Positions 794 through 63,418 of a stretch of 64,000 nucleotides of DNA are shown here, piece after piece. The stretch's first letter is position 1. The number at the start of each line of letters is the position of its first letter. Position numbers and translations under genes: made by a program. A model generated the notes under the pieces. That model worked only from the letters and a program-made list of their open reading frames with translations, had not been told where the DNA came from and made no database searches. The stretch comes from Candidatus Nomurabacteria bacterium (GTDB lineage: Bacteria; Patescibacteriota; Minisyncoccia; Phycocordibacterales; UBA9973). The stretch spans positions 201,159 to 265,158 of the forward strand of contig JAIOPO010000001.1 in the NCBI GenBank assembly GCA_021413905.1. The letters run 5' to 3'.

Positions 794-796
794 AAA

Positions 797-1348: not shown

Positions 1349-1377
1349 ATGATTATTATAACACTTACTAATAAAAA

Positions 1378-2094: not shown

Positions 2095-2103
2095 AGATAT
2101 AAA

Positions 2104-3117: not shown

Positions 3118-3155
3118 AGGGCTAAATATAGCATAAATATGCTAGAATAAAAAGA

Positions 3156-13734: not shown

Positions 13735-13864
13735 TCTATTATTTCTTCCTTTTTTTACTAAAAAGGACAAAAACTATTTATAATATGTAGATACATTTAC
13801 CTACATTTTAATAATAACATATAAAAATATTTAAAACAATACCATTGTGAATAAATATTAAAAC

Positions 13865-24649: not shown

Positions 24650-24991
24650 CTAATCAATAATTAGAAATTTTGATAAAATCCAATTTAAAACAGATACGAT
24701 CAAGGCTCCATAAAATGCCGACATAAAATCTGCAACATAAAAACCAGAAATGATATGACCTAAAAAATAAAAAATCAAACCATTTATAACTAAAGAAAAT
24801 AAACCTAATGTCAAAATATTTATCGGCAAAGTTATTATTTTTATAATTGGTTTTACTGTGTAATTTATCAACGTCAAAACAGCCCCTATGATAATAGCAG
24901 TATAAAAATAAGCCAAATTAATATCCGGTAAAAAATAAGCTGTTAAAAAAACTGCTAAAGATATCGCCAACCAATGTAAAATAATTTTCAT
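24650..24991 (-). CDS. YvlD/DUF360 (phage-holin-4_2-like) small membrane protein
   Basis: The product is 113 aa with 4 TM helices. ITLPINILTLGLFSLVINGLIF matches the family hallmark LTLPLTILTLGLFLLVINALM. Confidence 0.6.
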   Translation of the reverse strand: MKIILHWLAISLAVFLTAYFLPDINLAYFYTAIIIGAVLTLINYTVKPIIKIITLPINILTLGLFSLVINGLIFYFLGHIISGFYVADFMSAFYGALIVSVLNWILSKFLIID

Positions 24992-31821: not shown

Positions 31822-34638
31822 TTAAACTATTATATTCAAAAGTTTATTTTTTACATAAACTACCCTTTTTATTTCTTTGCCTTCTAGATGTTTCAAAATT
31901 GCTTCATTCTTTAAAGCTTTTTGTTTTATTTCTTCTTCTGTTTCTTCTATATTTATCAAAATTTCTGCACGCACTTTGCTATTTACCTGCAAAGCAATAG
32001 TTATTTCATCATCTTTCGTCAAAGCTTCGTCGTATTTCGGCCATAGGGAAAGATGTATGCTTTCTTTTTCGCCAAGATCCGCCCAAAGTTCTTCTGTTGT
32101 ATGTGGGGCAAAAGGAGCCAATAATTGCAAAAGAGTTTTATAAATTTCTTCTGAGATTTTTTCTTGTTTATCTAAACCATTTAAAAGAATCATCATTTTT
32201 GAAATACAAGTATTGTATTTATGTTCTTTGATATCTTGGTCTATGCCTTTGATTGTTTTGTGTAATAAATTACTTTGTTCTGTAAAATTTTTATCAATTT
32301 TTTCTTGCAATTTCCAAACTCGCTCCAAAAATCTACGCACACCGACGACGCCATTTGGATCCCAAGGATAGTTTACCGTCACTCCATACGGACCCATAAA
32401 TGCCAAATACAAACGCACTGTGTCTGCGCCAAGTCTTTCCACTATTTCATCAGGGTCTATCACATTGCCTTTTGATTTGGACATTTTATTTCCATCCGGA
32501 CCTAAAATAAGTCCCCTGTTGCGACGCATTGTGTAAGCCTCAGAATCTTTTACCAAACCTAAATCAAACAAAGCCTTTACCCAAAAACGAGAATAAAGTA
32601 AATGCATCGTAGTGTGCTCCGCCCCGCCCATATATAAATCCACCGGCATCCAAGAATTTATTTTTTCTTTATCTGCAAATTCTGTATCATTATTATTGTC
32701 CAAGTATCTGTAAAAATACCAAGAAGAATCTACAAATGTATCCATCGTTTCCACTTCCGGTTTCCATCCTTTTCCAAATATTTTTTCTGTTCTTTCTAGG
32801 AGTTCCTTGCTTCGTGCCAATGGTGCTGTGCCATCGGGCTTATAATCCACATCAGTCGGCAAAAGCCAAGGCAAGTGTTCGTCCGGCACCGGATGCGCCT
32901 TGCCTTCAATATCGTAAACTATCGGTATCGGCACACCCCAATATCTCTGCCGAGAAATCCCCCAGTCGCGTAGTCTATAAGTATTCACCAATTTCCCACC
33001 GACAAATTCTGTGATTTTTTTACGAGCTTCTTCGGAAGCTAAGCCATTAAATTTGGAAGAATTTATAAGTTCTCCATTTCCATCATAAAATAAATCTTTA
33101 CTTGCTAAGTATTTTTCTAAAATTTTTGCCTGACATAAATTATCTACTTTTTTAAAATTTTTAATGGCTTCATGAATATCCACCCAAATTAATTTTGCTT
33201 CTTTTGTATTTTCTTTAATTTGAGTAATATCAATATTCACCACATAAGCATGATGAAGCATTGTTCTAAAACATTTCCTTCTTTCAGAATACCAACTTGA
33301 TCTTAAGGTTTGAATCTTTTTAAATTTAGTGATATCTATATTTAAACCGACTTCTTCTCTGACTTCTCTTATTAAAGCATCTTCTGGTGTTTCACCTTCT
33401 TCGATACCACCTCCAACTAAAACATAATTTCCTCCAAACTTTGTCTGGTTTTCATTAGTTTCATCACATAAAACTTTTCCATTATTTTCAATAATAGCAC
33501 ATACCCTATTCCTTTCTATTGCATCTTTATTTCTATCTCCGACTATTTCTGCAATAACTTCTTTTATTGGCAAATTATATTTCTTTGCAAATTCAAAATC
33601 CCTTTCATCGTGGGCTGGCACTGCCATCACTGCTCCTGTGCCATAGCCTGCTAAAACATAATCCGCAATCCATACCGGCACTTCTTCATTATTCGCCGGG
33701 TTAATAGCTTTTATGCCTTTTAATTCAACTCCTGTTTTTTCTTTGGACTGCTGTCGGTCAAGTTCAGATTTCTTTTTTGTATCAGAAATATATTTTTCTA
33801 CTTCATTCCAATTTTCAATTTTATCTTTTAATTTTGAAATCAATTCATGTTCCGGCGCAAGTACTACATAAGTCACGCCAAACAAAGTATCCGCGCGAGT
33901 GGTAAATACTTTTATCTTTTCTTCAACATTTTTTATTCCAAATTCAATCTCACTCCCTTCACTCCTTCCTATCCAATTCTTCTGTGCGGATTTTATTTCG
34001 TGAGGCCAATCAAGCGTATCAAGATCGTCAATCAATCTGTCCGCATATTTTGAAATACGAAGCATCCATTGCTCTTGATCTCTTTGTTCCACTTCCGCTC
34101 CACAACGCTCGCATTTACCATCCACTACTTGCTCATTGGCAAGTATAGTCATATCTTTTGGACACCAATTTACTTTTGTAACATCGCGATATGCCAAATC
34201 ATTTTTCAAAAATTGATTAAACATCCATTGCGTCCATTTGTAATATTTCGGATCACAAGTCACCACCTCTCTGTCCCAATCAAAAGACGCGCCCATAGAA
34301 CGGAGCTGCAAGCGCATTTTATCCATATGTTCATAAGTCCAAATTTTTGGATCTGCGCCGAGTTTTATAGCTGCATTTTCTGCAGGCAAACCAAAAGCAT
34401 CAAAGCCCATCGGATACAAAACATTATACCCGCTCATTCTTTTATATCGCGCAAAAATATCCGGCACAGAAAAAGCATACCAGTGTCCCACGTGCAGATT
34501 GCCCGAAGGATAAGTGAATTCCACAAGTTGATAAAAATTTTCTTTACCTTTTACTGTATCATCTACCTTGTAAAGTTTATTCTTCTCCCATTCCTCCTGC
34601 CATTTTTTTTCAATTATTTTATGATCGTAATTTTTCAT
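31822..34638 (-). CDS. leuS: Leucyl-tRNA synthetase with an inserted Nudix-hydrolase-like domain
   Basis: The HIGH-type motif is HVGHWY, the CP1 editing domain is present (TTRADTLFGVTYVVLAPEH), and KMSKS and LRDWGISRQRYWG are present. An extra segment of about 150 aa (nt 33075-33550) carries a perfect Nudix box, GGGIEEGETPEDALIREVREEVGL. The product is 938 aa. Confidence 0.93.
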   Translation of the reverse strand: MKNYDHKIIEKKWQEEWEKNKLYKVDDTVKGKENFYQLVEFTYPSGNLHVGHWYAFSVPDIFARYKRMSGYNVLYPMGFDAFGLPAENAAIKLGADPKIWTYEHMDKMRLQLRSMGASFDWDREVVTCDPKYYKWTQWMFNQFLKNDLAYRDVTKVNWCPKDMTILANEQVVDGKCERCGAEVEQRDQEQWMLRISKYADRLIDDLDTLDWPHEIKSAQKNWIGRSEGSEIEFGIKNVEEKIKVFTTRADTLFGVTYVVLAPEHELISKLKDKIENWNEVEKYISDTKKKSELDRQQSKEKTGVELKGIKAINPANNEEVPVWIADYVLAGYGTGAVMAVPAHDERDFEFAKKYNLPIKEVIAEIVGDRNKDAIERNRVCAIIENNGKVLCDETNENQTKFGGNYVLVGGGIEEGETPEDALIREVREEVGLNIDITKFKKIQTLRSSWYSERRKCFRTMLHHAYVVNIDITQIKENTKEAKLIWVDIHEAIKNFKKVDNLCQAKILEKYLASKDLFYDGNGELINSSKFNGLASEEARKKITEFVGGKLVNTYRLRDWGISRQRYWGVPIPIVYDIEGKAHPVPDEHLPWLLPTDVDYKPDGTAPLARSKELLERTEKIFGKGWKPEVETMDTFVDSSWYFYRYLDNNNDTEFADKEKINSWMPVDLYMGGAEHTTMHLLYSRFWVKALFDLGLVKDSEAYTMRRNRGLILGPDGNKMSKSKGNVIDPDEIVERLGADTVRLYLAFMGPYGVTVNYPWDPNGVVGVRRFLERVWKLQEKIDKNFTEQSNLLHKTIKGIDQDIKEHKYNTCISKMMILLNGLDKQEKISEEIYKTLLQLLAPFAPHTTEELWADLGEKESIHLSLWPKYDEALTKDDEITIALQVNSKVRAEILINIEETEEEIKQKALKNEAILKHLEGKEIKRVVYVKNKLLNIIV

Positions 34639-37709: not shown

Positions 37710-38123
37710 TTATTTATATAAATGGTTATCGGATCCACATTTACAACCTTTTGGTTTTATAAATTCTTTAAAAAAATCTTTACCATAATCATAACCCAGT
37801 TCTTCGCCTTTTTTAATATCTTTTTTTGTAAAAATAAAAATTCTTTCTTTTTTAATTTCAACTTCGCAATTCGGACGACAATTATGATTAATATATCTGG
37901 CTATATTTTTTCTATCCTTTCCATCGATAGTCAAACTATCTCTAATCTCAAAAAGATACATACCTCCCACATTATCAGCTTCTTCTCTATTCAGTCTTTT
38001 CCCGACATATTCAATTACAAAATCTCCCTTTTTAAAATCCTGATCAGCAAAAAGTCCAAATCCTGCTTTTGTTTTTCTAATTTTAACTTTCGCTTTTTTT
38101 AATTTTTCTGTATCAAATTTCAT
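37710..38123 (-). CDS. SET-domain protein (putative protein-lysine methyltransferase)
   Basis: The core is GFGLFADQDFKKGDFVIEYVGKRL. INHNCRPNCEV matches NHSCxPN, and ELGYDYG is the SET-C tyrosine motif. A Cys-rich post-SET sequence is present (KGCKCGSDNH). The product is 137 aa. Confidence 0.75.
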   Translation of the reverse strand: MKFDTEKLKKAKVKIRKTKAGFGLFADQDFKKGDFVIEYVGKRLNREEADNVGGMYLFEIRDSLTIDGKDRKNIARYINHNCRPNCEVEIKKERIFIFTKKDIKKGEELGYDYGKDFFKEFIKPKGCKCGSDNHLYK

Positions 38124-39210: not shown

Positions 39211-39460
39211 TTAATTATTTGCCATAAGCCATGCATTTAATATTTTACGAGTGTAAGGACCCAAAACACCAGTTCCTTTTTTTAGACCCTGAGGAATAAG
39301 AATTTCTTTTGCATGAGCTTCTTGGAATTTTATTAATTGTTGTTTTGTTTTTTTACCAAAGAAATTATTTTCTTTACCTTTAGAACCAACCCCATTAAGA
39401 GCAATAGTGAAACCGTTATTATTCAAGAAAATTTGAAGTAATTTTACGTCGTTATTTGTA
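39211..39460 (-). other. C-terminal peptidoglycan-binding (PG_binding_1-like) domain of the giant protein
   Basis: DVKLLQIFLNNNGFTIALNGVGSKGKENNFFGKKTKQQLIKFQEAHAKEILIPQGLKKGTGVLGPYTRKIL fits the PG_binding_1 pattern (V..LQ..L...G.....DG.FG..T..A...FQ.....DG..GP.T...L). A poly-Gly linker precedes it at 39605-39650. Confidence 0.6.
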
Positions 39461-42400
39461 TTTGATTGTTTTAGATTCTTTTTAAATTGAAAACCATCTG
39501 GCAAACCTGTTTTTATGATTTTAAAATCACTTGAAATATTATTTATTTTCTCTTCAAGATTTTTAACATCTTTTTGTGTAGTATCTTGAGTTGATGAATA
39601 TCCTCCATATCCTCCGCCTCCACCGCCGCCACCAGAAGCAACCAAACAAGCACTAGTTGAAAATACTCTATCTGTATCTGAAACACCTGTACCAGAGCTA
39701 TTTATAGCATATGCTTTAAAATGATAAGTTGTACCACAAGACAGATTTGAAATAACTGTTGAAAATGAACCTTCGTCATACGAACCAATATTCTGTAAAA
39801 TTGTATTACCATAATTAGTCGTAGAGCCCCAATAAAAACCTCTAACAGAAGCTAATTCTCCTCCGGTAGACACTATGGTACCATTCAAAGTCCCCTGACT
39901 TCGAGAGACAGAAGAAGCAGAAGATGTTGTAACTATTGGATTCTCAACAGAATCATTTGAATCTGAAACAGAAACATTTACAAAATCAGTATTGAGAGAA
40001 TGGTGTATTCCTGGTGTAGCGACAGATTCATCTGTACCCCAATTTATTTCACGAGTATTGTATTCAGCTTGATACGCATTATGCTCTGTATCTGTTGGGT
40101 AGTGTTCCAAATTTTCATGATATGGATAATTTGTCATTTCATTAAATGGTAATGGGAAAATTGTATCTCCTAATGCATTATGGAATGATTTATGATAATC
40201 CCATGTGTCATAAATGAAATCACGTTCTGTTCCATTTGCTTGCACAGGAACTTCGTAACGAAGAGAAATTTCATCACCTTGTGTTGTTATAACAAATTTA
40301 TTATCAACATTCGCAAGTAAATCTTTTACATCACCATATTTTGTAGCCATACCGGTAAGAGTATTTCCTTTTCCTTTCTTTGAAATCAAATCAGCATAAT
40401 CTGGTATTTCCAAATCGCCCATATGTGCATCATTTGCATTCAAAGGAATCATATTTGAAATTCCACGAAAATGTAAATTTGCATAATAAGGTGATAAAAC
40501 TGATTTTGAAATCTCTTCATCGGGACTTGTGTCTACAGCAATCCAATCTATATCAGTTTGAATTTGACGATTTGTCATAACAAAACGAATTTCATTATCT
40601 TTTATTGTAAGACCTGAAAGATCAATAACTTTTGTATCAACACCATAACTATTACTTAAAATTCTATTTGTAACTGATTGACCTGAACGTTTACCGATAG
40701 ATGGATTCATATTCTCAGGAACGTTTACAAAAACCCCAGAGCTATTTTTATATTGAAGCGCATCAGATTGTTTATTTCCTTGGAACAATCCTTCTTTGCC
40801 TTTTTTAACAACAATTTTCAAATTAGCAGGAGTTACGGTATCATTAGAAAGTTTCATTGTTAAATATGAACTAGTGTCTTCTTTTCTTGTATGATAATAA
40901 TTATTATCATCATAAGCAATTAAACTTTTTACATCCTTACCATTTTGATCTTTTATCCAAATTGGAGCTTGTGCATTTTTTGCAATAGTATGTATTTGTT
41001 TATTTTGACGAGCATCAGGGAAAATATTTACATTTGAACTATGGTCAATAACCTCAAGGTTAGCTTGATCATAATAATTTACTTCATTTAATTCAAATGT
41101 AGTTTTTATATCATAGTATGTTCCATTATTATTTGTCGTAGGTGCCATATAACCACTTGGAATTTTTACAAAAGATTCAGGATTTGGATAAGTTGGTGCT
41201 TTGTAAAAAGGTGTAGATTTCCATTGTTCTCTGTCTAGGCCTTGTCCCATTGTTCCAGAACTTGAAGCATCAATAATAAATTTATATTCTTCACCATTCC
41301 ATGTAAATATAAAAGGACAAGAGGAAGAAATACCATAAAGAATTGTTTGTTCTGGACTTGTTTTACAAACACCCTCTGCATCACAAGAACGTACACGATA
41401 ATAATAAGCATTTCCAGTTACATTTAACCAATTTTCTCCACCATCATTAGATGTCCACAAAGCTCCACTGCCAACAGACATTATAAGTTTTGAACCATTA
41501 TAATTTGATGCAGCACCAATACCGAAACATTGATTAGGTCCTTTTCTAGACCAAGACCATATACCACTTTGTGAATTATAAATTCCAACTCCGATTTGAC
41601 CGCAATTTTCACCAAGAATAATTTTACTACCATCTGGACTCATATTTACTGAATACCAATAAGGAGTTCCTAAATCTTGATTCTCTGTCCAATCCCAAGT
41701 TTCACCAGATTTAACTGTATAGATATATCCACCCTCTTTTGCAACTACAAATTTACTACCATTTTCATTTGTTGATATGTATGAATCTCCCCACGACATA
41801 TTATTTGGATAACCAGTAGAAATTTGAGAAAGATCTGTCCAAGTCCAACCACCATCATTAACTCCAGACCAAACACTTCCATTAGCATTATTTTCTACAT
41901 CATAAGAACTCACAGCGAATATTTTATCACCTGTATAATCCATAGCGATAGATCTCCAATTTTGTAAACCTGTACTTGTATTTTCTGTCCAAATCCATGT
42001 AAGACCAGAATCATTTGATTGAGCTGTATAAATATAACTATAATCATCTATTATTGCACTTATACTATATCCATCTGCACTAGAAACAACCTTGAGCCAA
42101 TCTTGTGTTCCTGGATAATCAGTAGAAACACTTGAAAGATTTGTCCATACCCAAGTAGCACCTCCGTTATTAGTCACACCACGATAAATATTTCCACTAT
42201 CTACAGTCGCAAATATTATTGTTCCATTTGAATTAGATGAAACAGAACGCCAATTTTTTACACCAAGAGATGCTGATATATTATTCCATGTAAGTCCAGA
42301 ATTATTTGATGCCCAAATATCTCCACCATTTACAACTCCAAATAATCTTTGACCATCATAAGACGAAGCAACTTCTCTCCAAGATTTCTCTGTTGTATCT

Positions 42401-45400
42401 ATCAAAGAAGGAGATGTTTCGTGGCTTGTTACCAAATTATCATCTGTTGTATGGCTTGCATAAGAATCCCAACCATCGTTTAAGTGTGAGATTGTGTCAT
42501 ATGCAAGTTCTGTTGTAGATTCATTATTTGTTATCCAAGATATTGGAAGTGTTTGTGTATTAGTAAGAGATAATTCCAAATCAGTACTTACACTATTTTC
42601 TGCTTTTACCCAAATCCAAACATTATCATTGTTGTCATAATAATCAGAACCGGTTTTACTTCCAGAAATATCACAATCCTCTGCACAATGTTCTGTAGAA
42701 ATTTGTTCCCATTCTGAAGTATTAAAATTCCAAATTGAAACAATAACATTTTTTTCATCCGGCACAGCACCATGTCCTTTCCAATTTATTGTAAAAGTTG
42801 GAGTATTTATTTCATTTAAGTTTTGATGAATTTTAAATATTTGAGAATCATAGCCACTATCTGATTGTGAGATATCAGTAACAAGATATCTCTGATCTTC
42901 AGTAAGAGTTTTTAAATAACCATTATAAGAAACCAAAGTTCCTGGATTACTAGGCGATACAGCTCCATGAGTTTCATCGCTTTCATAATATTCATAAGAA
43001 ATAACTGGTAAGAATTTTACAATTGTTTTATTCTGAAGTGAATTATCATGGTATGCAACATATGGAATATTATTTGAATCAAGGGCCAATGAAAAATGTT
43101 CAATTGAACCAGTAGAAAATCCAGCATTACCAACATAAATCCAAGATTCACCATTCCATTTCATAACAGTAGCAGCACAAGCATTAGAACAATCTTCAAA
43201 TCCAACATATATTACATTATTACTATCTACTAAGATTTTATTGTAAGATACTCCACCTGTGCCAGAAAATTCTGGATCTCCGACATTTACCCAAGTATCA
43301 TTATCTAATGTCATTACACTTATTGAACAATTTTGATTACAATCACTATATGTAACGTAAGGAATATTATTACTATCTAGTACCATCGAAACATGCCAAG
43401 CATAATTAGAAGTAAAATAAGGATTTCCTAATGTAGACCAATCACCATTTACAAGTTTTTTTACAGTAGCACTGTAACTATGAGAACTATCGCTGTATAT
43501 GATATATGGAATATTATTTGAATCTGTAGCAATTTGATTTCTATATATTTGTCCATCAGTAAAACCAGCATTTCCTATTATATTCCAATTATTACCATCA
43601 AAAGACATTACTGTTCCTTTATAACCATAATTACTATCTTCAAAAGCAACAAAAGGTGTGCCATTTGCAGAAATTGCGGAACTTAATTCATAAGCATAAC
43701 CTGTATTAAATCTAGGATCTCCTACATTTTCCCAAGTATCATTTACAAATCTTTTAACAGTTATTTTATATTCATTATTAACTTCTACATAAAAAACATA
43801 AGGAATATCTTGATACATTTGCATTGATAAATAATCAACTTGAGTTCCAGAAAAATTTGGTTCACCGACTAATTCCCAATCAGAACCATTATTTTTTTTG
43901 ACACTAACACCATAACCATTTGAAGAATCTACATATGCAACATAAGCAACATTTTGACTGTTAAGTTTTAATGATTGATTATATTCATAATTGTTAAAAT
44001 TATCTTGATCTCCCACATCTTGCCATTTTGCATTTGTAGCAATAAATGTTCTATCTTCTCCAAAAGTAGTACCATCATTATTCACAATAAATGCACGATA
44101 ATGATATGTTTGATTAGCAGAAAGACTATAAATAGTTTTTGAAAAAATACTTTCACTATATGGACCACTTGATTCACTCCAAGATTCACCATAAGAATCT
44201 GTAAGTCCCCATTCAAAACCTCTTTCTGAAATTTCTAAATTACCTGCTTCCACTATTTGAGCATTCAAGTTTACAGAATTATCACTTGTATTTGAAGGAA
44301 CAAGAGTTTCAACTATTGGTATATTTGATTGCCAAACAAAAAACGGATAACCTTGATTCTTCATTGAAGAAATATCCCAAATATCATTATTATTTTCATC
44401 ATCAACTGGATTGTTTATAAAATCCCAAACATTACTAATTCCAGAACTTTCTATATTAGTAAATGTATCGACATTTTTCATTTCAGCGTCAGTTTTACTT
44501 GTACCATCATTGCCATTTATCTGATTTGAAGTATTTAAATCCCAAAAAGAATTTGTAACAGTATTATTAATATTAGTTTGAAGTCCAATCAAACCACCAT
44601 AATCTTCAACACCAATTACTAAACCGATTGAATAAGCATTATTAAGATTTACATTGGATTCCAACTGACCAATAAGTCCACCAACATTTGTATTTCCACT
44701 CACATTACCTTTTGAATAAACATTAGATATTGTTGCATTGTAAGTACTTCCAACAAAACCTCCAACATTATAAGAAAGTTGATTTGACCCATCACCATTA
44801 CCATCCACATCTCCTGTTGAATAAGATTGTTCAATACTTGCATCTTGAACATGTCCAGCAAAACCTCCGATGTTAGAACCATCAACTATATTTACATTTC
44901 CAGTTGCATAAGAATTTGAAATATCACCTGAATCTATTTCACCTACAAGTCCTCCGGCATATCCACTATTTGCACCCATAGTTACATCTCCAGTTGCATA
45001 AGAATTTGAAATATCACCGGAATTAACACCGACCAAACCTCCGGCATGTGAACTATTTGTATTTGAAACAGAAACATCTCCTGTTGCATGAGAATTTGAA
45101 ATATCACCGGAATTAACACCGACCAAACCTCCGGCATTGCTAGAAATAGCTGAAACATTTGCACTAGAATCAGAAGCATCAACATAATAAGAATAAAGAA
45201 AACCTACAAGTCCTCCGACATTTGAATCACCGGAAACATTTCCAGAAGAATGAACATCTAATATTTGACCATAATTAGCACCTACAACCATACCAACAAC
45301 ATTTTGACCAACAACTGATCCATTTACAGTAAGATGTTGTATTTTTGAACCATTACCAACAACAGAAAACAAACCTGCATTGCTTTCAGAAGGAGCATTT

Positions 45401-48400
45401 ATATCTACAGTTATAGTATGACCATTTCCATCAAAATTCCCAGAAAATTCTCTATTAATTCCAATCACAACACCATTACCAAGAGAAGTACAATCTAAAT
45501 CATTCATCAAAATATATGAACTATTAGTACTATTGTTCATTGATGTAAATTCTGAACATGATGAAATTTGATATGGATCACTTTCATTACCACTACCATT
45601 AAAGATAGAAGCTGATTCAGAAATAAAAGGATAACCATCGTTTGTAAAACCATCAATATCCCAAAGAGTATCGAAATTCCAACCAGCATCAGTGAAAGTT
45701 GATTCTGTTTTCATTGTTGAAGTATCTTCTCCTGTACCACCAGCACTAGTAGATTGATTTGAATTTTCATTATCCCAAAAAGAATTATAAATATTTCCTG
45801 TTTCACTATTATATCCAACTAGACCTCCTGTGTTTTCTGTATTATTACCTGTCACTAAACCTTTAGAATAAACTTTATTTATTAAAGATAAATTGGAAAT
45901 TGAACCAGTAAAACCTCCAACGTAATCATCTCCATTTACAGAACCCAATGAAAAAGAATTATCAACGACTGAATAACCATCAAGATTTCCAACGAAACCT
46001 CCAACATAGGAACCTGTAGTTGTTACATCTCCAGTTGCATAAGACATTGTAATATTTGAACCAGAATACATAGCTCCAACAAAACCCCCAACGTAATTTG
46101 GATTATATGTATTGTATTCATTTGTTTCTTGATTTCCAGTTACATTACCAGTAGCATAGTCATTCATCAAATTTGAATAATTAACAACTCCAGCAAAACC
46201 TCCAGCAGCATCTCCGGTTGAATTCACATTTTCAGTTGAATATGAATCTGATATATTGGAGCCATAAAGATATCCAACAAAACCTCCAGCAGCGTAACCT
46301 GTTTTCATTAATAAATACTCTGAACGATTTGAAGTCACTGTTCCACCTGATGCATAAGTATTTGTAATTTCTCCATTATTGGCAGATCCAACAACACCTC
46401 CAATAGAAGCTCCACCATCCACATCAGCTGATGAAGATGAATTACTTATTGAAGCACTATCTAACTCTCCGACAAGTCCTCCGATAATATCTCCACTTCC
46501 ATGCACAACTCCATTATTATTTATAATATGATTAATACTTGCACCTTCTTCCATCATACCGACAAGTCCTCCTCCATGATAATCCAAATATGTTCTTATC
46601 ATATTGTTTGTTAAGTTAACGTCTGTAATAGTACCACCATACATATAACCAACAAGTCCTCCTGTATTCTGAGCTCCAACTATATTTGAATTTTCAATGT
46701 TTACATCATGAATATTTGCATTTTGTGTTTTACCAAAAACACCATTGTTATCTGAATCTTTTCTAAAAATCCACAAATTATTTATTGTATATCCATCACC
46801 ATCAAAAGTACCCAAAAATGGAGTACTATCATTACCTACTGGCTCAAAACCATAGTAACCATTATTTTCGACAATAATATCTGTATGCGTTACTTCAGAA
46901 TATGAATCAGGAATCAATTCTCCATCAACAATTCCATCTACCCATTCACTAGCATTAGCATTCCAAGATAAAGTATCAGAACAATCTATATTATCAACAA
47001 GTATATAATGTGCACTTAAATCATTATTCATTAGCTGTAACTGAGGACAACTACTTATTTGATATGGATCACCTTCACTTCCATCACCACCATCGAAGTC
47101 TGAGGCTTTAGTGAAAGATCTTTCTTCTGTAGAAGATTTTACACCAGAAGTATTCACAGCATATCCTGTAAATGAATGAGAACCATTCGAAAAATCTTCA
47201 TTCGTATAATCATACTGATTAATATGAGCATTATAAAGTGAAGCTATTTCATTACTATTTAATGCACGAGAAAATAATAAAGTATCGTCCATTTTTCCAT
47301 TTATATAAACACCATCAGTCCTTCTACCAATATTTATTGTTTGTCCAATATTTCTAGACGCTCCTCCACTAGCAGCAATTTCACCATTTACATAAAGAGT
47401 TTCTGTACCATTATTTTCGACTGCCACAAGATGTGTCCAAGCACCAATATCAGCGGGTGCAAAAGTAGCATATTCATCAAATTGCCATTGACCGCCACCA
47501 CCAATTTGTATTAAATGACCATTTTCATCAGAAAAAATAGATTGACCAGCATAACGATTATTTAAATAAACCCATGAGGAAAAAGTAAAATCTCCGGTTA
47601 TTGTACTTGGTAAAGTTGTACTAATATAACTATTACCATTAAAATTAGCCGCTTTACCAAATTTTCCTGTTGAATATGTTTCAGTACCATGCCAAATACC
47701 ATTAGAAGAAGATGTGTCATCATTTGCATTATTTTCAAATCTCCAAAAAGCAACTAGGGAATTATCGATATCTGTAAATGCATAATGATTTGCACCAATA
47801 CTAGAACTATCCATATTTATTTCTGCAACTGAACTAGATTGAGAACTATTATTTTCTGGAGTTGGATTTACAAAAGAAATACCACTGATTGTATTTCCAT
47901 GAAGTAAAGGATAAGAAGTTGAAGTATCCCAAATATTAGTATCATTAAAATCCCAGCTAGCGAGCGGTTCATTTGTATTATTGTTTTTAAAATAATTTGT
48001 ATCTGGGTTTCCAATAGTATTAACAGCAGAACAACCACTAATATCAGAACCCTGAGAACAACCAGATTGTTCTGTTCTTATTTGATCGTAAAAATTATTT
48101 ATAAGTGCACCATTAACATATTCACCAATAAGACCTCCTGACAAAGAAGAAAAATTAGAAACACGACCAACAGCAAAAGAATCTGTAATCTCTCCATTTA
48201 AATATCCAGTCAAACCTCCTCCATGGGTTGATCCATTTCCAAAAACAGAACCAGTTGCATAAGAACTTGAAATAATATAAAAGTTAATTCCTGTTAGACC
48301 ACCAACATATTGACCACCTGAGACAGAACCAGTTGCATAAGAATCAGAAATAGTTCCATGGTTTTCACCAATAAGACCTCCTGAAGCTACAGCTCCCACC

Positions 48401-51400
48401 ACAGTAACATTTGAAAATGATTTATCAATTGTTGTTAAACCATCATTAACTCCAACAAGTCCTCCTGTATAAGTACCTTCTGAAGTAACCCTACCTGTCG
48501 TATACACATTTCTTATTGTTCCTTCATTATAACCAACAAGACCTCCTGTATAAGATGAAGCATTTGTAATATTTTCATTTTCCACCCCAAGATTTTCAAT
48601 TACAGCAGATGAATTTGTTTCACCGAACAAACCGACACCTAAACTAGAATTTATATTTATAAATAAATTTATTATTTTATAACCTGCTCCATTGAAATTA
48701 CCATTAAATAAATAATCATCATTTCCAAGTGGCTCGAACCCTTGCCCAGAATTCCAGTTTATAGTATCTGAACAATCTATGTTTTGTGTAAGTATATATG
48801 ATGCATTTAAATCATTGTTAACATTTTGAAGTCCTGTGCAAGAATTTATTTGATAAGGATTCTCGGGAGAACCATCACCTTGAGTATAATAAACATTCGG
48901 ATCATCAGAAGAAAGATTAGCAAGTGTAGGATAATAATTTTCAGTAAAAACCCAATTAGTATTATTAAAACTATTTAAAGGTGCATTTGAATTATCATTT
49001 TTAAAATAATTTTCATTAGGAGTTTCTATTGTATTTACAGGATTACAATCAGAATTACTAGATCCATTTTGTCCACCAGGAGTATTATCTCCAATACATT
49101 GATTCACACCAGTATTTATCTGATCATAAGAGTTATTGATTATTTCATTTAAACCTAAATTAGAATTTTCTTGTCCGACAATACCTCCAATATATGTATC
49201 ATTAACTCCTGGTGTATTTGTTATTTCATTTCCATTCCAAAAAGTAACAGAACCCACTGAAAAGTTCCCTTCTATATGAGACGCATTTAAAGCTTGACCA
49301 ATAAAAGAAGAAATATGAGAATTAAAACTAGATGATATACCCACGATAGTACTCGAAGAATAACTATTAAAAACATTAGAATTAGCAACTACTCCAATAA
49401 GGCCACCACAAACATCATTACAAGACACAGTACCAGTAGAATAACTATCATAAACTTCACTATCAATAACATCACCCATAAGCCCTCCGACATATGCACC
49501 GATAGAATAAATATCACCTGTTGCATATGTTCTATATATAGATGAATTTTCACTCTGACCGACAAGTCCTCCTGTATTATTAGAATAAGACAAAGAACTT
49601 ATATTTGTATTAGAATAAGAATCTTCTATTATTGCATAAGTTGCCCAGCCTACAAGTCCTCCGACAGCATAACCAACATTAGCACCAGAAAGAATTGAAA
49701 TATCACCTTCAGAATAACTACCGTCAGAGATAGTTGTATCCTCATCTTCATATCCAACTAAACCTCCAACAGACCAAACTGAATCAGCTACAGAAATATT
49801 TCCATGATAATTATCATTTGATAATGAAGAAGAAACGGTATAACCTGCAATACCACCTATCAGCGGATTCCATCCATCATTTGCTGTACTAGTAATATTT
49901 ACATAAGAAGAGCTATCTTGAATAGCACTATTATTAATCTCTGAAACAATTCCACCTACATTATATGGACTCAAAATATCACCTGTTACAGTTAGATTTT
50001 CTATCAGAGCATTTTGATTTAAAGATACAAAAAGTCCAACATCATGATAAGTTCCATCTGTATTATCAATATCAATATTAATACTATAACCATTTCCATC
50101 AAAATGTCCGGTAAAAGGAATAATATTCCCAACCATAATTTGAGTTCCATCATCTGCACAATCTAAATCTGCATCCAATAAAAAGCTTGAATCAAGCAAA
50201 GCAAAATTATTTATTTCTTTAAATTGAGAACAAGATGTCACAACATAAGGATCTATATCTGTACCAGAACCTGTTCCTGAAAAAAGATTACCTTGTCTAA
50301 GTGTTGGATAACCAGAAATATTTGTTGACCATGCTGAAGAAAAATCCCATTTATCAAGAGGTGAATTTACAGAATTATTAGAATAATATGTTTGAATATC
50401 ATTAACAGAAACACAAGAAGGAGCCCAATCACCGAATATACCAACACAATAATTATGACCACTGGCAACCTGATCATAATAATCTAAACCAGTGAGATAA
50501 TCATCTCCTGAGCCAGCAAAGCCTCCGACATAATCAGTATTTAATCCTTGGTCAACATTACCAGATGAAAATGAATTTAAAATATCAAGACTTGCATAAT
50601 ATCCCACAAAACCTCCAGTAAAAAAACCTTCACTTGAAACATTTCCAGTTGCATAAGAATTTTTTATAACTCCATCGTACTCATTATATCCCACAAAACC
50701 TCCAGTAAAATTATCGCCTCCAATTTCAGAAACATTTCCAGTTGCATAAGAATTCATAATTTGACCCACATTTTGTCCAACAAAACCTCCGACATTACTA
50801 CTTCCAGTTACATTTGCACCAGAATAAGAATTTACAATAAAATTAGAATAATCATTATTACTTCCAACAACACCTCCGACTACATCTACACCATGGACGT
50901 TTCCATTTACATATACATTATAAATTTTTCCAAGATAATTTTCTCCAGCAAGTCCTCCTGTAAAATCAGCTCCAGTAATGTCTACATTTTCTAATCCTAC
51001 ATTTTTAATAATAGCTCCTTGTTGTACATAAGAGAAAAGTCCAATATTATTACTACTTGAATTATTGATATACAAATCATTTATTGTATATCCATCACCA
51101 TCAAAAATACCAGAAAATTGATCAATCGGTGTAAAACCATATCCTATATTATACAATGGTCCACCTTCATGCGTATCAGAATTACAATCTATATTGTCAG
51201 TTAAAATATAATTTGCACTTTGATTTTGATTTATATTTTGTAATTGTATACAAGAAGAAATTTGATACGGATCTTCTACTGTTCCAGAACCACCATCAAA
51301 TAAAGCAATATCATCACCTGAAACATTAATTAAAGTTGGAAATGAACCAGCAACAAAAGACCACACATCTACATCGAAAAAATTTAAAGGAAAATTTGCA

Positions 51401-54400
51401 TTATTACCAACAAAATAATAAGGATTATCATTTACATTTACTCCGTTACAATCATCATTGGGACCTTGATTAGAACAATAGACTTCTGGTGTTGAATCAT
51501 TATAAAAAGTATTAATTGTATTTAATGTTCCAACATAATCACCTACTATATTACCAATATACCCCGCACCAAAATTTGAAAATTGAACAGAAGCAAAAGA
51601 ATTTTGAATATTTATAATTCCTGTTCCTGGGCCAAACCCTTCCCCTTCATAACCGATCAAACCTCCAGCAGTTCCAGAACTAGAAAAACCAGTACCATTT
51701 AAATTTACTTTTGAATAAGAGTTAACAACACTTATTTCTGGATAATTATACCCAACAAGACCTCCGACAATAGCCCAACCTGAAATATTTGTATTTACAT
51801 ATGAATCTATAATCGTAAAAGGAGTATCGTTCGTATTAGAAAAACCAACCAAGCCTCCTGCAAAAAATCCATCAAACATATTTTGAGCAAGACCTGTAGA
51901 ATTAACACTTGAATTTTCTCCACCAAAAAAGTTTTCTCTGAAATCTATATCTACATGAGAACCAGTTGTGTCTAAAAAACCAATAAGTCCACCAGTATTT
52001 GAATTACCAGAGATGACACCATTTGAATAATTATACTTAAATTGATTTGTTAAATCGTAAGAACTATTGTCAAAAAGATAATAATACCCGACAAGACCTC
52101 CAACAGAATTAGAAGTACCTGTCACAGATCCTGCTGTGTAAGAATTATTATTAAATTGAAAATCTAAATTATTATTTCCAAAAATTTCAGCATCAATTTC
52201 TCCTGCAATACCTCCGATATACGAATCACCACTTATATCTCCGGTTACATTATTATTTAATATATAAAAATTAGTAGTATCATTATTGCTATTATTGTTA
52301 ACATAAGAATACCCTATCAAACCTCCAGTATACTGAGAACCTCCTAGAATATCATCATTTGATTCATTGTCATGAATAGTAGTAACTATTACACCAGAAC
52401 CACTATCATCATAAACATCAATCTCACCTAAAAGTCCACCGACAGAAAAAGCACCATTAGAACCATCGATTAATCCATTTTCTATGGTATTAGAAAAAAT
52501 CTCTATATTGATATTACCATTTCCTGTTGAATATCCTTCAACAAAACCTATCAAACCTCCAAGATAATAACTTGAACTAGAAAGTGTAACATCTCCAGTA
52601 ATTGTATTGCCATGAACATCTAAATTTCCAGCATCATAAACATCTGAATAACCAATCAATCCTCCAACTTGAGAACCATCAGCATTTACATCTCCTGAAA
52701 CATTTGAATTTAAAATATTTGATTCAATATCTGTGCTTAAATATCCGACAACGCCTCCAGTACAGTAACTACCATTTACTATTCCAGAAAAAGTCACATC
52801 ACTTATAGTGACATTTGATGCATAACCTGCAACACCTCCAATATTACTATTTCCATTAATTGTTCCGTTAAATTCACCGCCACTGATAGTAGTTCCATAT
52901 GCTACACCCACAAGTCCACCGATATTATTTCCAGAACCAGCTGAAACATCAACAGAAGAATATACATCTGTAATTGTCGCGCCATTAGCAATAGCAGCAA
53001 GAGCACCAATTGTCGAACCATTTATACTTTGAACATTTCCAGCAAGATGTAAATCTTGAATATTAGCAGTATCACTGAGTTCAGAAAAAAGACCGATATT
53101 TGGATCACCCTCACCGTCAAGATTTATAGTAATAGTATAACCATTTCCATCAAGACTTCCTGAAAAAACACCCGAATTTATCATCATTGAATTTCCTTCT
53201 CCTGCACAAGAAAGATTGCCGTCCAAAACAAAACTTTCATCTAAAAGATTATTTATATTTTCAAAATCACTACAACTAGAAATATGAATAACAGGACGAT
53301 CATTTACGGGACCTTCATCATTTAACACATTGTGTAATGTTGGATATTCATTACTAGCAGAATCCCAAATTGGTTCTGAACTAAAATCCCAATGTCCTAA
53401 AAAGGGAAAAACAGATGAAGTGTTTTTAAAATAATCCATTTCAGATCCAATAGAGTTTTTATTTTCACAAGTAGCCAAATCCCCCAAATAAGGATCTCCA
53501 GAATTCGTATTTCCACAAGCCGACTGTGTACTTCTTAAGGTATCCCAAAAAACATTAGAAAGCATAGAGCCAACACTGTCTGATGTTTGATTAATACCAA
53601 ATATTGCTCCATGATAACTACCAGAATTCACACTAGCAACACTAAAACTATTTTGTATAACTGCCCCTGATTGAATAACACCAACAAGACCTCCTGTATT
53701 CGTTTGTTCAGAAAATACTGTCCCTCTTGAATAACTATTTACAACACTAGATAAAGAAACAGTACCGGCAATTCCTCCGACGTTACCAAAATTAGAAATA
53801 ATATTTCCTATATTGTATGAATTTGTAATCTGAGAATTATTTCCCAAACTACCGACAATTCCTCCGACATGACTATCTCCAGTTATATTTGCCTTATTAA
53901 TAACCTGATCAATAATAGAATTATTGGAAAAACCGGTTAAACCTCCAAGACCGGATCCTATATTTTGAACAGAACCAGATATGCTCAATTTAGAAACTGT
54001 AGCATTATGTAAAAAAGAAAACAGACCGGCATTGTCTCCTTCATAGTTTATAGACACATCAATATTATGACCATTTCCATCAAAATTTCCCTGGAAACCA
54101 CCATACATCGATCCTGGATCTATGATTATATTATTATGTTCTCCTGCACATTCCAAATCTCTCATCAAAATAAAATAACTAGAAAGATGAGAATTAATAT
54201 GTTCAAACTGAGCACAAGAATTTATTTGATAAGGATTCCCGGAACTTCCATCACCATCTAAAAATTCAGCATTTGGATCATAATGAAAATTAAAATCTTC
54301 TGTTAGATTACTTCTGACGATAGTTACATATTGATCAGATAAATCATCTAAAAGTGTCCAAGTATTACCATCCATACTACCGTACAATTTCCAACTTATA

Positions 54401-55751: not shown

Positions 55752-56270
55752 TTATTTTTTAGTTTTTATCTTTTTAAGAGAACCATTTTTTTTACTATTA
55801 AAAAAATTGTTTGCATTTTTCATTTCAATAATATTTTTAACTTTTGATACAATATATGCATTATTGTTTTCTTTGGAAAATACAGTGACATTGTCTCCTA
55901 CCTTAAAATCTGAAATTGAAGGATTTTGGATACCCTTAACTAAAAACTCTGTTTTGTCATTTAATGAGAAAGTACTAACTAGTAGATCTTTATTCTTTAT
56001 ATTTTTTTTATTATTTGTATTTTTCTTATTTTCTTTTTTATTTTTATTAATTTTTGAAATATGAGATTCCGTGACAGTGATAGTACCATTGTCTATACTG
56101 GAAATAACTCCTCTGAAAATATTACTTTTAGGTATTGTAGTTGAAATATTTTTTATTTTGGATAAATTTTTAGAAACTGGAGCATTATCAACTGCAAAAA
56201 CATTACCAACAAAGAGACTAAAGAAAAAAACTGACAACAGACTTACGATATAAATATATTTTTTGTACAT
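55752..56270 (-). CDS. Secreted Lys/Asn-rich small protein encoded immediately upstream of the giant gene
   Basis: The start was taken at ATG 56270 (MYKKYIYIVSLLSVFFFSLFVGNVFA, a signal peptide). There is a low-complexity K/N stretch (NKNKKENKKNTNNKKNIKNK). It is on the same strand and ends 11 nt before the giant ORF start. Confidence 0.4.
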   Translation of the reverse strand: MYKKYIYIVSLLSVFFFSLFVGNVFAVDNAPVSKNLSKIKNISTTIPKSNIFRGVISSIDNGTITVTESHISKINKNKKENKKNTNNKKNIKNKDLLVSTFSLNDKTEFLVKGIQNPSISDFKVGDNVTVFSKENNNAYIVSKVKNIIEMKNANNFFNSKKNGSLKKIKTKK

Positions 56271-56361
56271 TTTTTGAAAAATTAAAATAATAAAAGAATA
56301 ATGTAGATTAATTATATCAAAACAAAATATTAAACACAAACAAAAAGAGTTTTTTTGACAA

Positions 56362-57521: not shown

Positions 57522-58706
57522 CTACACCAATTCCCCATTAAAAGCTTCACGGAGATATGATTTTTCTAATTTTTTAAAATCTTCAAGTTGTGATTTTTGT
57601 AATTCTACCATTTGACGAATTTTTTCTGAAAGTGTATCCAATCGTTCAACAATTTTCTTCTGTTCTGAGAATGGTGGAATTATGAGTTTTATGTCATCTA
57701 GCATGTATTTAGTTATTTGATTTATCATTGGACCCCCACCAGCACTAAACTGATCAAAAAATAACTTAGACTTAAAGAAATAATAAAGGTAAGCATTATT
57801 TTCACTTCTAATAATTGTCATGAACGTACCGAATGTCATTTTCTCAGTAAGATTTTTAATCATTGCAGTTTTCCCAATTAGTCTTTTACTTCCATTTCTA
57901 CTACACATTAAAATATCTCCGTCTTTCACAAAGAGTTCTTCTTTTATTTTCTTTTCAACTCTAACCAAACTAGATAAATCAATTAAGTCCTTTTGCACAT
58001 TGGAGGATCTTAAAACTATAGTTCCTTTTGAACCAACATCACTAGGAGAGTAAGTTAAACCTATAGAATATTTTGCAATATCTTTTAAAAATACTTCCTC
58101 CCAGCCTTTTTCTTTACCCTCTTCAAAAATTTCACGGAGGGTTTGGGAGAGGATTTTTTCTGTTTCAGCGATTGATTGTTCGCGCAAACTTTTCACCTCC
58201 CGAATCTTTGCAAATTTCTCATCCAAAATCTCCACAATTTTCTTTTGAATTTCAAGTGGTGGAAGTGGGATTTCAATTTCTTTTAATCGTGAACCTGAAA
58301 CCTCTAAAAATGTTGAGCCACTACCTAAAGAATTTAATAACTCTGTATTTGAAAATAAAAAATAATATAAATATTTATTAAATATCTCTGAACCACAAAT
58401 AAAACTACGGCAACCCTGATTTGTTGCCATTGGTACTGTATTTATAACGACATAACCAATCGGTGCGCGAGATGATAATATAACGGACCCAATAGGTAAT
58501 TTTTGAGCTGAAGAATTTTTGAGTCCTGATTCAGAAATTTTTCGTTCAGTTTCAGAAATCTGAAAACTATCAAGTCGTCCAAGATCTTTTGGTGTTACCC
58601 AACACAAATCACCACCCCAATATTTTGAAATACCAGTTTTTGGAGTACCTCCGCCAACGATTTCACAAATCTCACTTAGTTTTTTTATTTGCCAGTTAGT
58701 TTTCAT
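57522..58706 (-). CDS. hsdS: Type I restriction-modification specificity subunit HsdS
   Basis: There are two target-recognition domains with conserved central and C-terminal coiled repeats. The N-terminus is WQIKKLSEICEIVGGGTPKTGISKYWGGDLCWVTPKDL. The product is 394 aa. Confidence 0.85.
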   Translation of the reverse strand: MKTNWQIKKLSEICEIVGGGTPKTGISKYWGGDLCWVTPKDLGRLDSFQISETERKISESGLKNSSAQKLPIGSVILSSRAPIGYVVINTVPMATNQGCRSFICGSEIFNKYLYYFLFSNTELLNSLGSGSTFLEVSGSRLKEIEIPLPPLEIQKKIVEILDEKFAKIREVKSLREQSIAETEKILSQTLREIFEEGKEKGWEEVFLKDIAKYSIGLTYSPSDVGSKGTIVLRSSNVQKDLIDLSSLVRVEKKIKEELFVKDGDILMCSRNGSKRLIGKTAMIKNLTEKMTFGTFMTIIRSENNAYLYYFFKSKLFFDQFSAGGGPMINQITKYMLDDIKLIIPPFSEQKKIVERLDTLSEKIRQMVELQKSQLEDFKKLEKSYLREAFNGELV

Positions 58707-59677
58707 ATTTTTGTGTAATGTTTATCCATTTCCTTATATACTTCTGAAGAGAAAAAGGCTCTTTTAATACCACTCTTTTTTACAGGATCTAAATAACTGA
58801 ATTTACAAAATACATCTTTGCTTTTTATTTCCTCAATAATTTTATTAAATACACTATTTTGCTTAAAATCACTATATCTATTTTTTAAAGAAGAAACTAA
58901 ATCTTTTTTATTAATTGTATATTTAGTTTTAAATAGACTTTCTTCACTAATAAAAACTGATGCTCCTTTTTTTCCAACCCTGACTGTATTTATTCCAGAT
59001 GACCCTTTTTCAAACTTTGTAACTAAATTTAATGAAAAATTATGTGGGGAGTTTTCAGTATAAGGATTTTTTCTCTCTTTTAATTTAAAATATTTTAGTA
59101 GATTTTTCTCTTGAACTGTTTGTTTGTTCACAGAAAAACTTTCAATTTCGTATGGATGAAAAAAAGAGATTGGCATTAGATAAAAATTATATTTGCTCAT
59201 ATCGTAACTAAACCAATCAGAAGTAAATTCTAGGTAACTTTTTAAAGAAGCTGTGCATATTTCTTGTATTTTTTTTGATAAATATTTATCACTATTATAG
59301 AAATGTATACTATTATCTCTAATTTCAATTATTGCTTCTAAATTATCTTTTACTACTTTTGGTAACTTTAAAAGTTCTATTAGTTTAAATATCTCCAAAG
59401 TATACGGGTTACCGCTCCTATTTTCCTTTGGATAAAACCTTTTAACTGGATCACCTTTCTTCGTCTTTGTTTTGGACTGAACTTGAATACTTGAAACTTT
59501 ATTTTTGTTGTCTTTTAAAACTTTTGCTTTAAGTAATAGTTCCCAAGCATTAACTAGTAATATAGAAAATATTTCTTCTCTATACGCAAAATCTGGCTTA
59601 TTATAAATCTCTATTGCTGAAATAATAGAAGCAACTGATTTGTCAAGTAATTTACTTTGTAAATTTTGTTTTGCCAT
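58703..59677 (-). CDS. HEPN-motif protein embedded in the type I RM operon (candidate RNase/abortive-infection effector)
   Basis: An Rx4HxY motif (IEIRDNSIHFY, Arg120/His125, nt 59302-59328) follows the N-terminal helical region SAIEIYNKPDFAYREEIFSILLVNAWELLLKA. Its start overlaps the hsdS gene's 5' end by 4 nt (ATGA) and its stop is 2 nt from the TIR gene start. The family assignment (DUF3644/DUF4145-like) is from memory, not searched. Confidence 0.5.
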   Translation of the reverse strand: MAKQNLQSKLLDKSVASIISAIEIYNKPDFAYREEIFSILLVNAWELLLKAKVLKDNKNKVSSIQVQSKTKTKKGDPVKRFYPKENRSGNPYTLEIFKLIELLKLPKVVKDNLEAIIEIRDNSIHFYNSDKYLSKKIQEICTASLKSYLEFTSDWFSYDMSKYNFYLMPISFFHPYEIESFSVNKQTVQEKNLLKYFKLKERKNPYTENSPHNFSLNLVTKFEKGSSGINTVRVGKKGASVFISEESLFKTKYTINKKDLVSSLKNRYSDFKQNSVFNKIIEEIKSKDVFCKFSYLDPVKKSGIKRAFFSSEVYKEMDKHYTKI

Positions 59678-59679
59678 GA

Positions 59680-60753: not shown

Positions 60754-60759
60754 AATTTA

Positions 60760-60933
60760 TATATTCTTTAAAATCTTTTTAATCTCCTCTTCCTTCCCTA
60801 AAATCCTCTCGACCTTATTTTTTATCTTCGGTTTCTTTAAATCAACCTGAAAAATCTGTCCGGATTTTTCAGGTTTTGTTTTTCTGTATTCAAGAAAAGA
60901 TATTTTATAGAACGGATTTATAATTTTTGCCAT
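60760..60933 (-). pseudogene. Remnant of an HsdM C-terminus (57-codon ORF) downstream of rhuM
   Basis: It encodes ...KVERILGKEEEIKKILKNI*, matching the true HsdM C-terminus LVERILGKEEEIKRIISNL. It contains a 36-bp repeat identical at 35 of 36 positions to the hsdM 3' end. Confidence 0.5.
60779..60814. repeat. 36-bp direct repeat, copy A (matches the hsdM 3' end)
   Basis: ttaatctcctcttccttccctaaaatcctctcgacc differs at one position from copy B at 62018-62052. Together the two copies bracket rhuM. Confidence 0.8.
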
Positions 60934-60944
60934 AAATAATTTAA

Positions 60945-61967: not shown

Positions 61968-61971
61968 ATAA

Positions 61972-63414: not shown

Positions 63415-63418
63415 AAAT

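Follow-up and report, generated by a model that had tools for sequence, protein, structure and literature searches.

A giant Candidatus Nomurabacteria protein ends in a spacer and PG_binding_1 tail that recurs across Patescibacteria and most likely serves as a cell-wall retention tag

We analysed a window of 64,000 nucleotides from contig JAIOPO010000001.1 of a Candidatus Nomurabacteria bacterium (positions below are those of the window), which carries a giant gene as one minus-strand open reading frame (ORF) at 39211-55740, i.e. 5,509 codons plus stop, or about 16.5 kb, according to the ORF list and translation. The protein ends in a Gly-run spacer and a PG_binding_1 domain, and this tail, which recurs on proteins of many Patescibacteria, is most likely, judging from sequence, a general C-terminal cell-wall retention tag. 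We consider it moderately probable that the giant is a Sec-secreted, adhesin-like protein held by the tag on the wall of the cell that produces it. In this scheme the N-terminal 45 residues would be a signal peptide, probably cut after ...IANA; the chain would be exported N-terminus first, and the C-terminus would come out last, beside the membrane, where it would suit an anchor role; the terminal PG_binding_1 domain would bind the cell's own peptidoglycan non-covalently, with the G8YGGY run and a polar linker of about 40 residues as a flexible spacer that crosses or overlies the wall; and the passenger of about 5,300 residues (GLUG, ConA-like lectin, propeller-like, AF_1625_C-like and fn3-like parts) would project outward and make contacts. 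All features of the giant given below lie on the minus strand.

The terminal domain (39214-39483, residues 5420-5509) was identified by Pfam, an AlphaFold2 model, Foldseek and the invariant columns of an alignment with its relatives (alignment A1). In a Pfam scan of the last 199 residues, PF01471 (PG_binding_1) matched residues 5429-5476 with an E-value of 8.7e-7 and a score of 29.5 bits against a gathering cutoff of 23, and the family also scored above the cutoff (23.7 bits) when the last 1,309 residues were scanned. The hidden Markov model alignment covers profile positions 2-41 of 57, because the subfamily carries insertions before helix 2 and helix 3. These insertions, G-x-G-S-x-G-x-E before helix 2 and P-x-G-L-K-K-G-T-G before helix 3, are both conserved among the relatives in alignment A1 and mark the domain as a Patescibacteria subtype. 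A profile search of the window for extra copies of the domain found none, i.e. it is single-copy there.

The AlphaFold2 model of the last 99 residues, built from a 10-sequence alignment, had a predicted local distance difference test score (pLDDT) of 81 and a predicted template modelling score (pTM) of 0.72, with three main helices at model residues 20-31, 53-65 and 85-98. Foldseek returned 29 PDB matches to this model, the best twenty of which were all cell-wall proteins. They include SleC and LdtA together with CtpB, phiKZ gp144, the N-terminal domain of SleB, 5TV7, YcbB, the AP3 endolysin and the Zn DD-peptidase 1LBU, these last seven being among the entries whose titles name a peptidoglycan-binding or N-terminal domain. 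The top eight matches had a probability of 1.00 and query-normalised template modelling scores (TM-scores) of 0.57-0.61; the E-values were modest, the best being 2.7e-3 and none falling below 1e-3. A phmmer search of the last 129 residues against PDB sequences gave nothing significant (chance matches to ribosomal L14, E >= 0.2), so that the solved PG_binding_1 domains are out of reach by sequence comparison alone. The tail of the giant is a PG_binding_1 domain, for which the model predicts a three-helix bundle fold. This bears out the first-pass annotation of the sequence, which had assigned the last 80 or so residues to PG_binding_1: the family match is significant, the predicted bundle has PG_binding_1 proteins as its best PDB matches, and the tail that was quoted is exact, with five more residues (LMANN) preceding the stop.

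The tail is not peculiar to this protein. A word-indexed search with the last 129 residues returned nine close relatives, all annotated PF01471, and a scan in which each GTDB species was represented by one genome gave 99 confirmed loci (L numbers below), of which 80 were kept. Records with a lineage in the title were nearly all metagenome-assembled genomes of Patescibacteria, the named lineages being Yanofsky-, Nealson-, Nomura-, Taylor-, Kaiser-, Lloyd-, Lipton-, Magasanik-, Buchanan- and Staskawiczbacteria and 'Paceibacterota'; many co-assembly records are labelled Saccharibacteria or Gammaproteobacteria, and we suspect that these unconfirmed labels are automatic. The domain ends 15 residues or fewer from the stop in 58 of the 80 loci, in proteins of a few hundred up to more than 3,400 residues (reconstructed ORFs). 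A run of at least four Gly lies within the 90 residues upstream of the domain in 22 of the 80, the others having G/S-rich or P/T-rich spacers, and several genomes carry two or more loci of the domain.

An exhaustive HMMER profile search of 1.84 billion representative (cluster) proteins extended this picture, with 14,697 proteins matching at E <= 1e-3 and 900 at E <= 1e-30. The domain lay within the last 130 residues in 135 of the 150 best matches, and among the 79 of these proteins with at least 600 residues the match was C-terminal (last 130 residues) in 71 and near the N-terminus in three. PF01471 was matched by 34 of 39 full-length relatives (best E 1.4e-31), and the passengers of the 39 complete relatives were heterogeneous: fn3, Laminin_G_3, several Big_x families, Beta_helix, PA14, FG-GAP, SdrD_B, Chlam_PMP, GDSL lipase and GLUG were all represented. 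Such unrelated passengers on one tail are what one expects of a tag for sorting or anchoring. Existing labels for the relatives are 'peptidoglycan-binding domain-containing protein' (NCBI) and 'peptidoglycan hydrolase-like protein with peptidoglycan-binding domain' (JGI). No published description of the Gly-run/PG_binding_1 cassette as a C-terminal tag of Patescibacteria was found among open-access papers and preprints, and we regard the generality of the cassette across the phylum as only a mildly new point. One contig, CAITGV010000002.1, carries two giant GLUG genes in tandem, 113 nucleotides apart, encoding 2,288 residues (L078, 3383-10249) and 4,310 residues (L078 from 10366 onward into L003); both end in a Gly run and PG_binding_1.

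The N-terminus of the giant has the design of a Sec-type signal sequence (55606-55740, residues 1-45: MSPHHFFKLLKKISK / TFLFSLFIFSFIVA / PISPIIPILGIKIANA, followed by VP), i.e. a basic n-region, a 14-residue hydrophobic core and a Pro/Gly-rich extension that ends in an A-x-A type site, ...KIANA|VP. Residues 12-40 are the sole hydrophobic segment of the protein, and no internal transmembrane-like (TM-like) windows were found, in agreement with the first-pass description of a giant extracytoplasmic protein with a single hydrophobic segment at its N-terminus. The 4,310-residue relative (L003full) has the same N-terminal design, ending in ...FLLLNLLIVIFTVA-PVSQALIYIANA|DD (YIANA|DD), and VANA| occurs at the equivalent site in the relatives L004 and L058. 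Since IANA is kept in the 4,310-residue relative despite differing downstream sequence, the motif is likely to have a function, for which a signal peptidase I site is the simplest candidate, and the signal peptide of the giant is probably cleaved after A45. On this heuristic reading, the A-x-A site and the recurrence of IANA favour a cleavable signal peptide over the permanent membrane anchor that had been proposed for this N-terminus.

The relatives point in the same direction. Among complete relatives with the terminal domain, 38 of 42 have an N-terminal hydrophobic core and 36 of 42 have no other TM-like segment. Most of their signal peptides, read by eye, are textbook examples ending in A-x-A, e.g. 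VANA|A, VFA|Q, VYA|T, AFA|G and AYA|A. If these signal peptides are cleaved, the C-terminal domain is the only means by which the proteins could be retained on the cell.

Further observations concern whose wall would be bound. Genes for MurJ (the lipid II flippase), MreB and a polysaccharide deacetylase all lie in the window, so the organism's own wall is favoured. D-Ala-D-Ala carboxypeptidases trim the nascent peptidoglycan of the cell that produces them, and the Patescibacteria protein at L024 consists of a signal peptide, a Peptidase_S11 (D-Ala-D-Ala carboxypeptidase) domain and the same domain subtype, with 51% identity over query residues 3-95; an own-wall enzyme therefore uses the tag, which again favours the own wall. 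Standalone archaeal homologs of a beta-rich domain of the giant (the AF_1625_C-like domain described below) have at their C-terminal end an S/T-rich linker, followed by a TM helix and the basic tail RKIRK. They thus have a TM cell anchor where the window protein and its relative P0010 have a Gly run and PG_binding_1, and this substitution likewise favours own-wall anchoring.

Several points weigh against anchoring in the producer's own wall, and most of them lend themselves to a different explanation. The uncharged stretch T16-I40 of the giant is 25 residues long, which is enough for a membrane span or an uncleaved signal anchor, and in the 4,310-residue relative a long Pro/Thr-rich stalk follows right after the IANA site and could span the wall behind an N-terminal anchor. 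The peptidoglycan specificity of the tail domain is itself a prediction, and the DD-carboxypeptidase fusion is a single case. The PG_binding_1 domains of phage endolysins target and bind foreign walls, and 3bkh and 5nm7 are among the fold matches of the tail. All cultivated Patescibacteria are episymbionts, according to PMC12206443. Extracellular proteins containing a peptidoglycan-binding domain (PGBD) are among the most highly expressed genes of parasitic Paceibacteria growing on methanogenic archaea, and a role in host attachment was proposed for them (Kuroda et al. 2024, mBio, PMC10936435). The giant could accordingly be a protein with an uncleaved N-terminal signal anchor, from which the chain extends until the distal PG_binding_1 domain grips the peptidoglycan of a host bacterium, with the Gly run as a swivel. 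We judge this arrangement unlikely, and its fullest form, in which a fibre of possibly hundreds of nanometres catches a Gram-positive host by inserting its PG_binding_1 tip where peptidoglycan is exposed and the cassette is a host-capture device, is if anything slightly more so. Both need the N-terminal anchor to stay uncleaved, whereas the conserved IANA resembles a signal-peptidase site, and both leave the tag on many ordinary secreted proteins unexplained: the same tail occurs on dozens of proteins with short classical A-x-A signal peptides that would otherwise lack any means of cell retention, and on a DD-carboxypeptidase. The peptidoglycan of a Gram-negative host, moreover, lies under an outer membrane. 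Methanogenic archaea, as hosts, have no murein. For the archaeal hosts studied by Kuroda et al. (PMC10936435) a host-peptidoglycan ligand is therefore implausible, and self-anchoring fits better there. The first-pass annotation had placed the PG-binding module at a distal tip gripping the host wall and had named anchoring in the organism's own wall as what would contradict this; own-wall anchoring is now the reading that we favour, from sequence-based topology and from the presence of the tail on many signal-peptide proteins with no other membrane segment.

Two other explanations were considered. The giant could be tethered twice, by an uncleaved N-terminal anchor and by binding to the cell's own wall, giving a looped surface layer, or it could be cleaved and shed and then re-bind exposed peptidoglycan, own or foreign. 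Non-covalent wall modules can attach from either side of the wall, outer or inner, as in display by LysM and GW modules, and the single domain copy suggests a modest affinity; nothing in the sequence calls for such a model, however, and it adds assumptions while explaining no more of the data, so that we regard it as improbable, a little more so than a grip on the host. Finally, the terminal bundle might not bind peptidoglycan at all, being instead a protein-protein or intramolecular module, or a binder of another envelope polymer, e.g. an S-layer glycan. The same fold occurs in the pro-domain of matrix metalloproteinases, Pfam itself terms the PG_binding_1 family 'putative', and the subtype departs from the Pfam model by two insertions, with profile positions 2-41 alone aligned. 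Set against this, the top structural matches are all cell-wall proteins of bacteria or phages, one relative (L024) joins the domain to a peptidoglycan DD-carboxypeptidase, and the producing lineage makes peptidoglycan, which together leave this explanation very unlikely.

Own-wall retention by such a tail has close parallels in known systems. PGB1 is listed among the non-covalent peptidoglycan-binding modules in a review (PMC5817068), and the best explanation of the tail, on present sequence grounds, is that it would be a wall anchor of this PGB1 type, i.e. a known device, borne here by an unusually large passenger of a phylum that has been little studied. The wall-anchored proteins of monoderms (Listeria InlB with GW modules, AcmA with LysM, the Clostridioides Cwp proteins with CWB2, and SLH proteins; PMC5817068) have the same layout of Sec signal, passenger, spacer and terminal module, and likewise reuse one tag on many unrelated passengers. 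The giant differs from them in its single PG_binding_1 domain of a Patescibacteria-specific subtype, in a type of spacer that is often pure Gly, in its 5,300-residue passenger, and in that its binding is predicted. Enzymes with PG_binding_1 (Bacillus CtpB and SleB, phiKZ gp144, Streptomyces 1LBU, YcbB/LdtD) share the three-helix fold (TM-score 0.55-0.61) as a terminal domain, but in them it accompanies a peptidoglycan-acting catalytic domain, whereas no catalytic domain was detected in the giant by Pfam scans, and identity to the solved domains is 18-28%. The PGBD proteins of Ca. Yanofskyibacterium and Ca. Minisyncoccus (PMC10936435) resemble the giant in being extracellular proteins of Paceibacteria that combine a PGBD with Ig-like or other adhesion folds; compared by description only, they differ in that neither giant size nor a poly-Gly cassette is described for them.

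Two further groups of large surface proteins share features with the giant. Streptococcal M26 IgA1/Zmp metalloproteases have GLUG repeats (PF07581) in their N-terminal regions, and the giant shows weak Peptidase_M26_N similarity (13.7-19.9 bits, below the cutoff of 27.7), but it has no M26 catalytic-domain match in Pfam and no LPXTG. No LP.[TSA]G motif occurs anywhere in the giant and it has no C-terminal hydrophobic window, i.e. it does not look like a sortase substrate. The giants of Omnitrophota ('Archaeovorins', Dockerin-type; West-Roberts et al. 2023, bioRxiv 10.1101/2023.11.21.568195) are also very long extracytoplasmic proteins of small-celled, possibly host-dependent bacteria. They have SecA-like helicase domains, C-proximal transmembrane regions, HEAT, TPR or Dockerin repeats, and glycosyl-transferase domains (10.1101/2023.11.21.568195); we rejected kinship with them because the window protein has no such Pfam matches and no internal TM-like windows.

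The putative spacer begins with a Gly hinge, GGGGGGGGYGGY (G8YGGY; 39598-39633, residues 5370-5381), which lies about 50 residues before the domain; nowhere else does the protein have five or more consecutive Gly. A poly-Gly spacer upstream of the domain had been noted in the first pass; it is present, at coordinates slightly different from the 39605-39650 given then. The run is encoded by mixed GGN codons and is therefore not a slippery homopolymer tract, and we rejected phase variation at this site on the same ground. It is followed by a polar linker (39484-39597, residues 5382-5419) comprising a short charged stretch, KDVKNLEEKINNISSDF, which from its sequence is probably helical, and a GLPDGFQFKK lead-in to the domain. 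In many relatives (noted in L004, L005, L010, L040, L049, L065, L069 and L079) an amphipathic Leu/Gln-rich stretch of 20-30 residues, e.g. SLQEQLNALLVKLYALQKQAREQG, lies between spacer and PG_binding_1; it could form a helix or a coiled-coil oligomerisation element, and the version in the window protein (residues 5390-5406) is shorter and charged. Immediately N-terminal to the Gly linker is an fn3-like beta-sandwich (39637-39933, residues ~5270-5368), for which the Pfam fn3 match is sub-threshold (E 0.056) and which shares 38-51% identity with its counterparts in L046, L045, L049, L067 and L074. The layout of L046 and L078 is exactly that of the window protein, i.e. fn3-like domain, ...C, Gly run, linker and domain.

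The greater part of the passenger is a GLUG-repeat region (44041-54234, residues ~503-3900). Pfam Glug (PF07581) matched three overlapping pieces of the giant (E 1.8e-11, 4.5e-38 and 6.5e-45), with eight matched stretches (E 4.5e-38) and eleven (E 6.5e-45), above the cutoff, on two overlapping pieces of 1,600 residues. Five modules of this region start with a strict P-Y-x-I-x-S-C head, at residues 503, 1491, 2295, 2892 and 3389, and 52 GG[LFIV][VAIT]G motifs occur in the whole protein; the GLUG modules are probably beta-helical. A ConA-like lectin domain of the Laminin_G_3 family (47242-47640, residues 2701-2833; PF13385, E 8.5e-19, 68.6 bits) is followed on its C-terminal side by two propeller-like repeat regions, one with DSNNIPYV repeats and the other Asp-box-like. 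The latter (41341-42393, residues ~4450-4800) has four motifs resembling the Asp-box S-x-D-x-G-x-x-W, at residues 4478, 4523, 4575 and 4764; it has no direct Pfam match in the window protein and aligns with a stretch of L001 that matches Pfam Sortilin-Vps10, and it is probably a beta-propeller. With this composition the giant looks like an adhesin or contact fibre.

Between the Asp-box region and the fn3-like domain lies a beta-rich domain of about 460 residues related to the archaeal AF_1625_C (PF27237; 39931-41328, residues 4805-5270). Its homologs P0011-P0013 align over 95% of the query with 32-34% identity and have been assigned to PF27237 by precomputed annotation; our Pfam scans of the domain and its archaeal homologs, with a library that did not include PF27237, gave no match. 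An AlphaFold2 model of residues 4795-5270 from a 6-sequence alignment was poor (pLDDT 46) and was not used for fold search. The standalone homologs (650-667 residues; L082, 6001-7986) sit in an archaeal-looking neighbourhood with ATP-synt_F and Fae/DHDPS genes nearby. The presence of this module in the giant may reflect the transfer of a surface-protein module between domains of life.

The giant gene appears sound. Its start is well defined because an in-frame upstream stop lies only 18 nucleotides above the ATG. We rejected an assembly chimera or artefact, since no long near-identical DNA repeats were found within the gene and since an independent assembly, a Logan contig from SRR15633504, is identical to the window across 22,817 nucleotides, including the 3' 5.4 kb of the gene. 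The window (33% G+C) is a stretch of cellular chromosome with many housekeeping genes, i.e. those for RRF, MreB, F1Fo ATP synthase, an RF-1/RF-2-family release factor, bL25, GatB, Obg, LeuRS, MurJ, YchF and Sua5, and a second metagenome (locus L081) has the orthologous synteny from the C-terminus of the giant through YchF, Sua5 and DUF5671 to LeuRS. This LeuRS has 100% identity to an NCBI protein of 'Candidatus Nomurabacteria bacterium', which places the ultrasmall source organism in the Paceibacteria of the Patescibacteria (CPR). A SET-domain (lysine methyltransferase-like) protein of 137 residues, encoded at 37710-38123 on the minus strand between YchF and Sua5, is absent at the syntenic L081. 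No terminator-like site was found directly 3' of the giant gene. On its other side, 12 nucleotides upstream and on the same (minus) strand, is the gene for a small, Lys/Asn-rich secreted protein (55752-56339) with no Pfam match; counted from an internal Met, its signal peptide ends VFA|VDN, and the two genes may be co-transcribed.

Elsewhere in the window, the stretch directly upstream of the giant gene and its neighbours is a defence-like island (57522-63955, minus strand), which encodes HsdS (type I restriction-modification specificity), a DUF3644 protein, a TIR-domain protein, a RhuM-family protein, HsdM and the C-terminal part of an EcoEI-type HsdR, the TIR, RhuM and DUF3644 genes being embedded between hsdS and hsdM. 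LeuRS (31822-34638, minus strand) has a NUDIX hydrolase domain (residues 378-495) inserted after its editing domain; this insertion is common to most full-length close relatives in Paceibacteria, and some have an abhydrolase, PF04266 or PF04480 domain instead. An RRM_1 RNA-recognition-motif protein and a Phage_holin_4_2 membrane protein are encoded amid housekeeping genes at 13390-13770 and 24650-24991 respectively, both on the minus strand.

A large part of bacterial diversity belongs to the Patescibacteria, which seemingly live attached to other cells and whose surface biology is almost unstudied. As an apparent phylum-wide retention tag, the tail described here would provide a simple sequence rule by which the displayed surface proteome of these organisms could be listed, including candidate host-contact proteins. 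It also carries a warning, in that a peptidoglycan-binding domain in an episymbiont is not automatically a host-binding device. The 16.5-kb gene of the window is a good candidate for an adhesin, and its architecture would be an ordinary instance of the tail rule.

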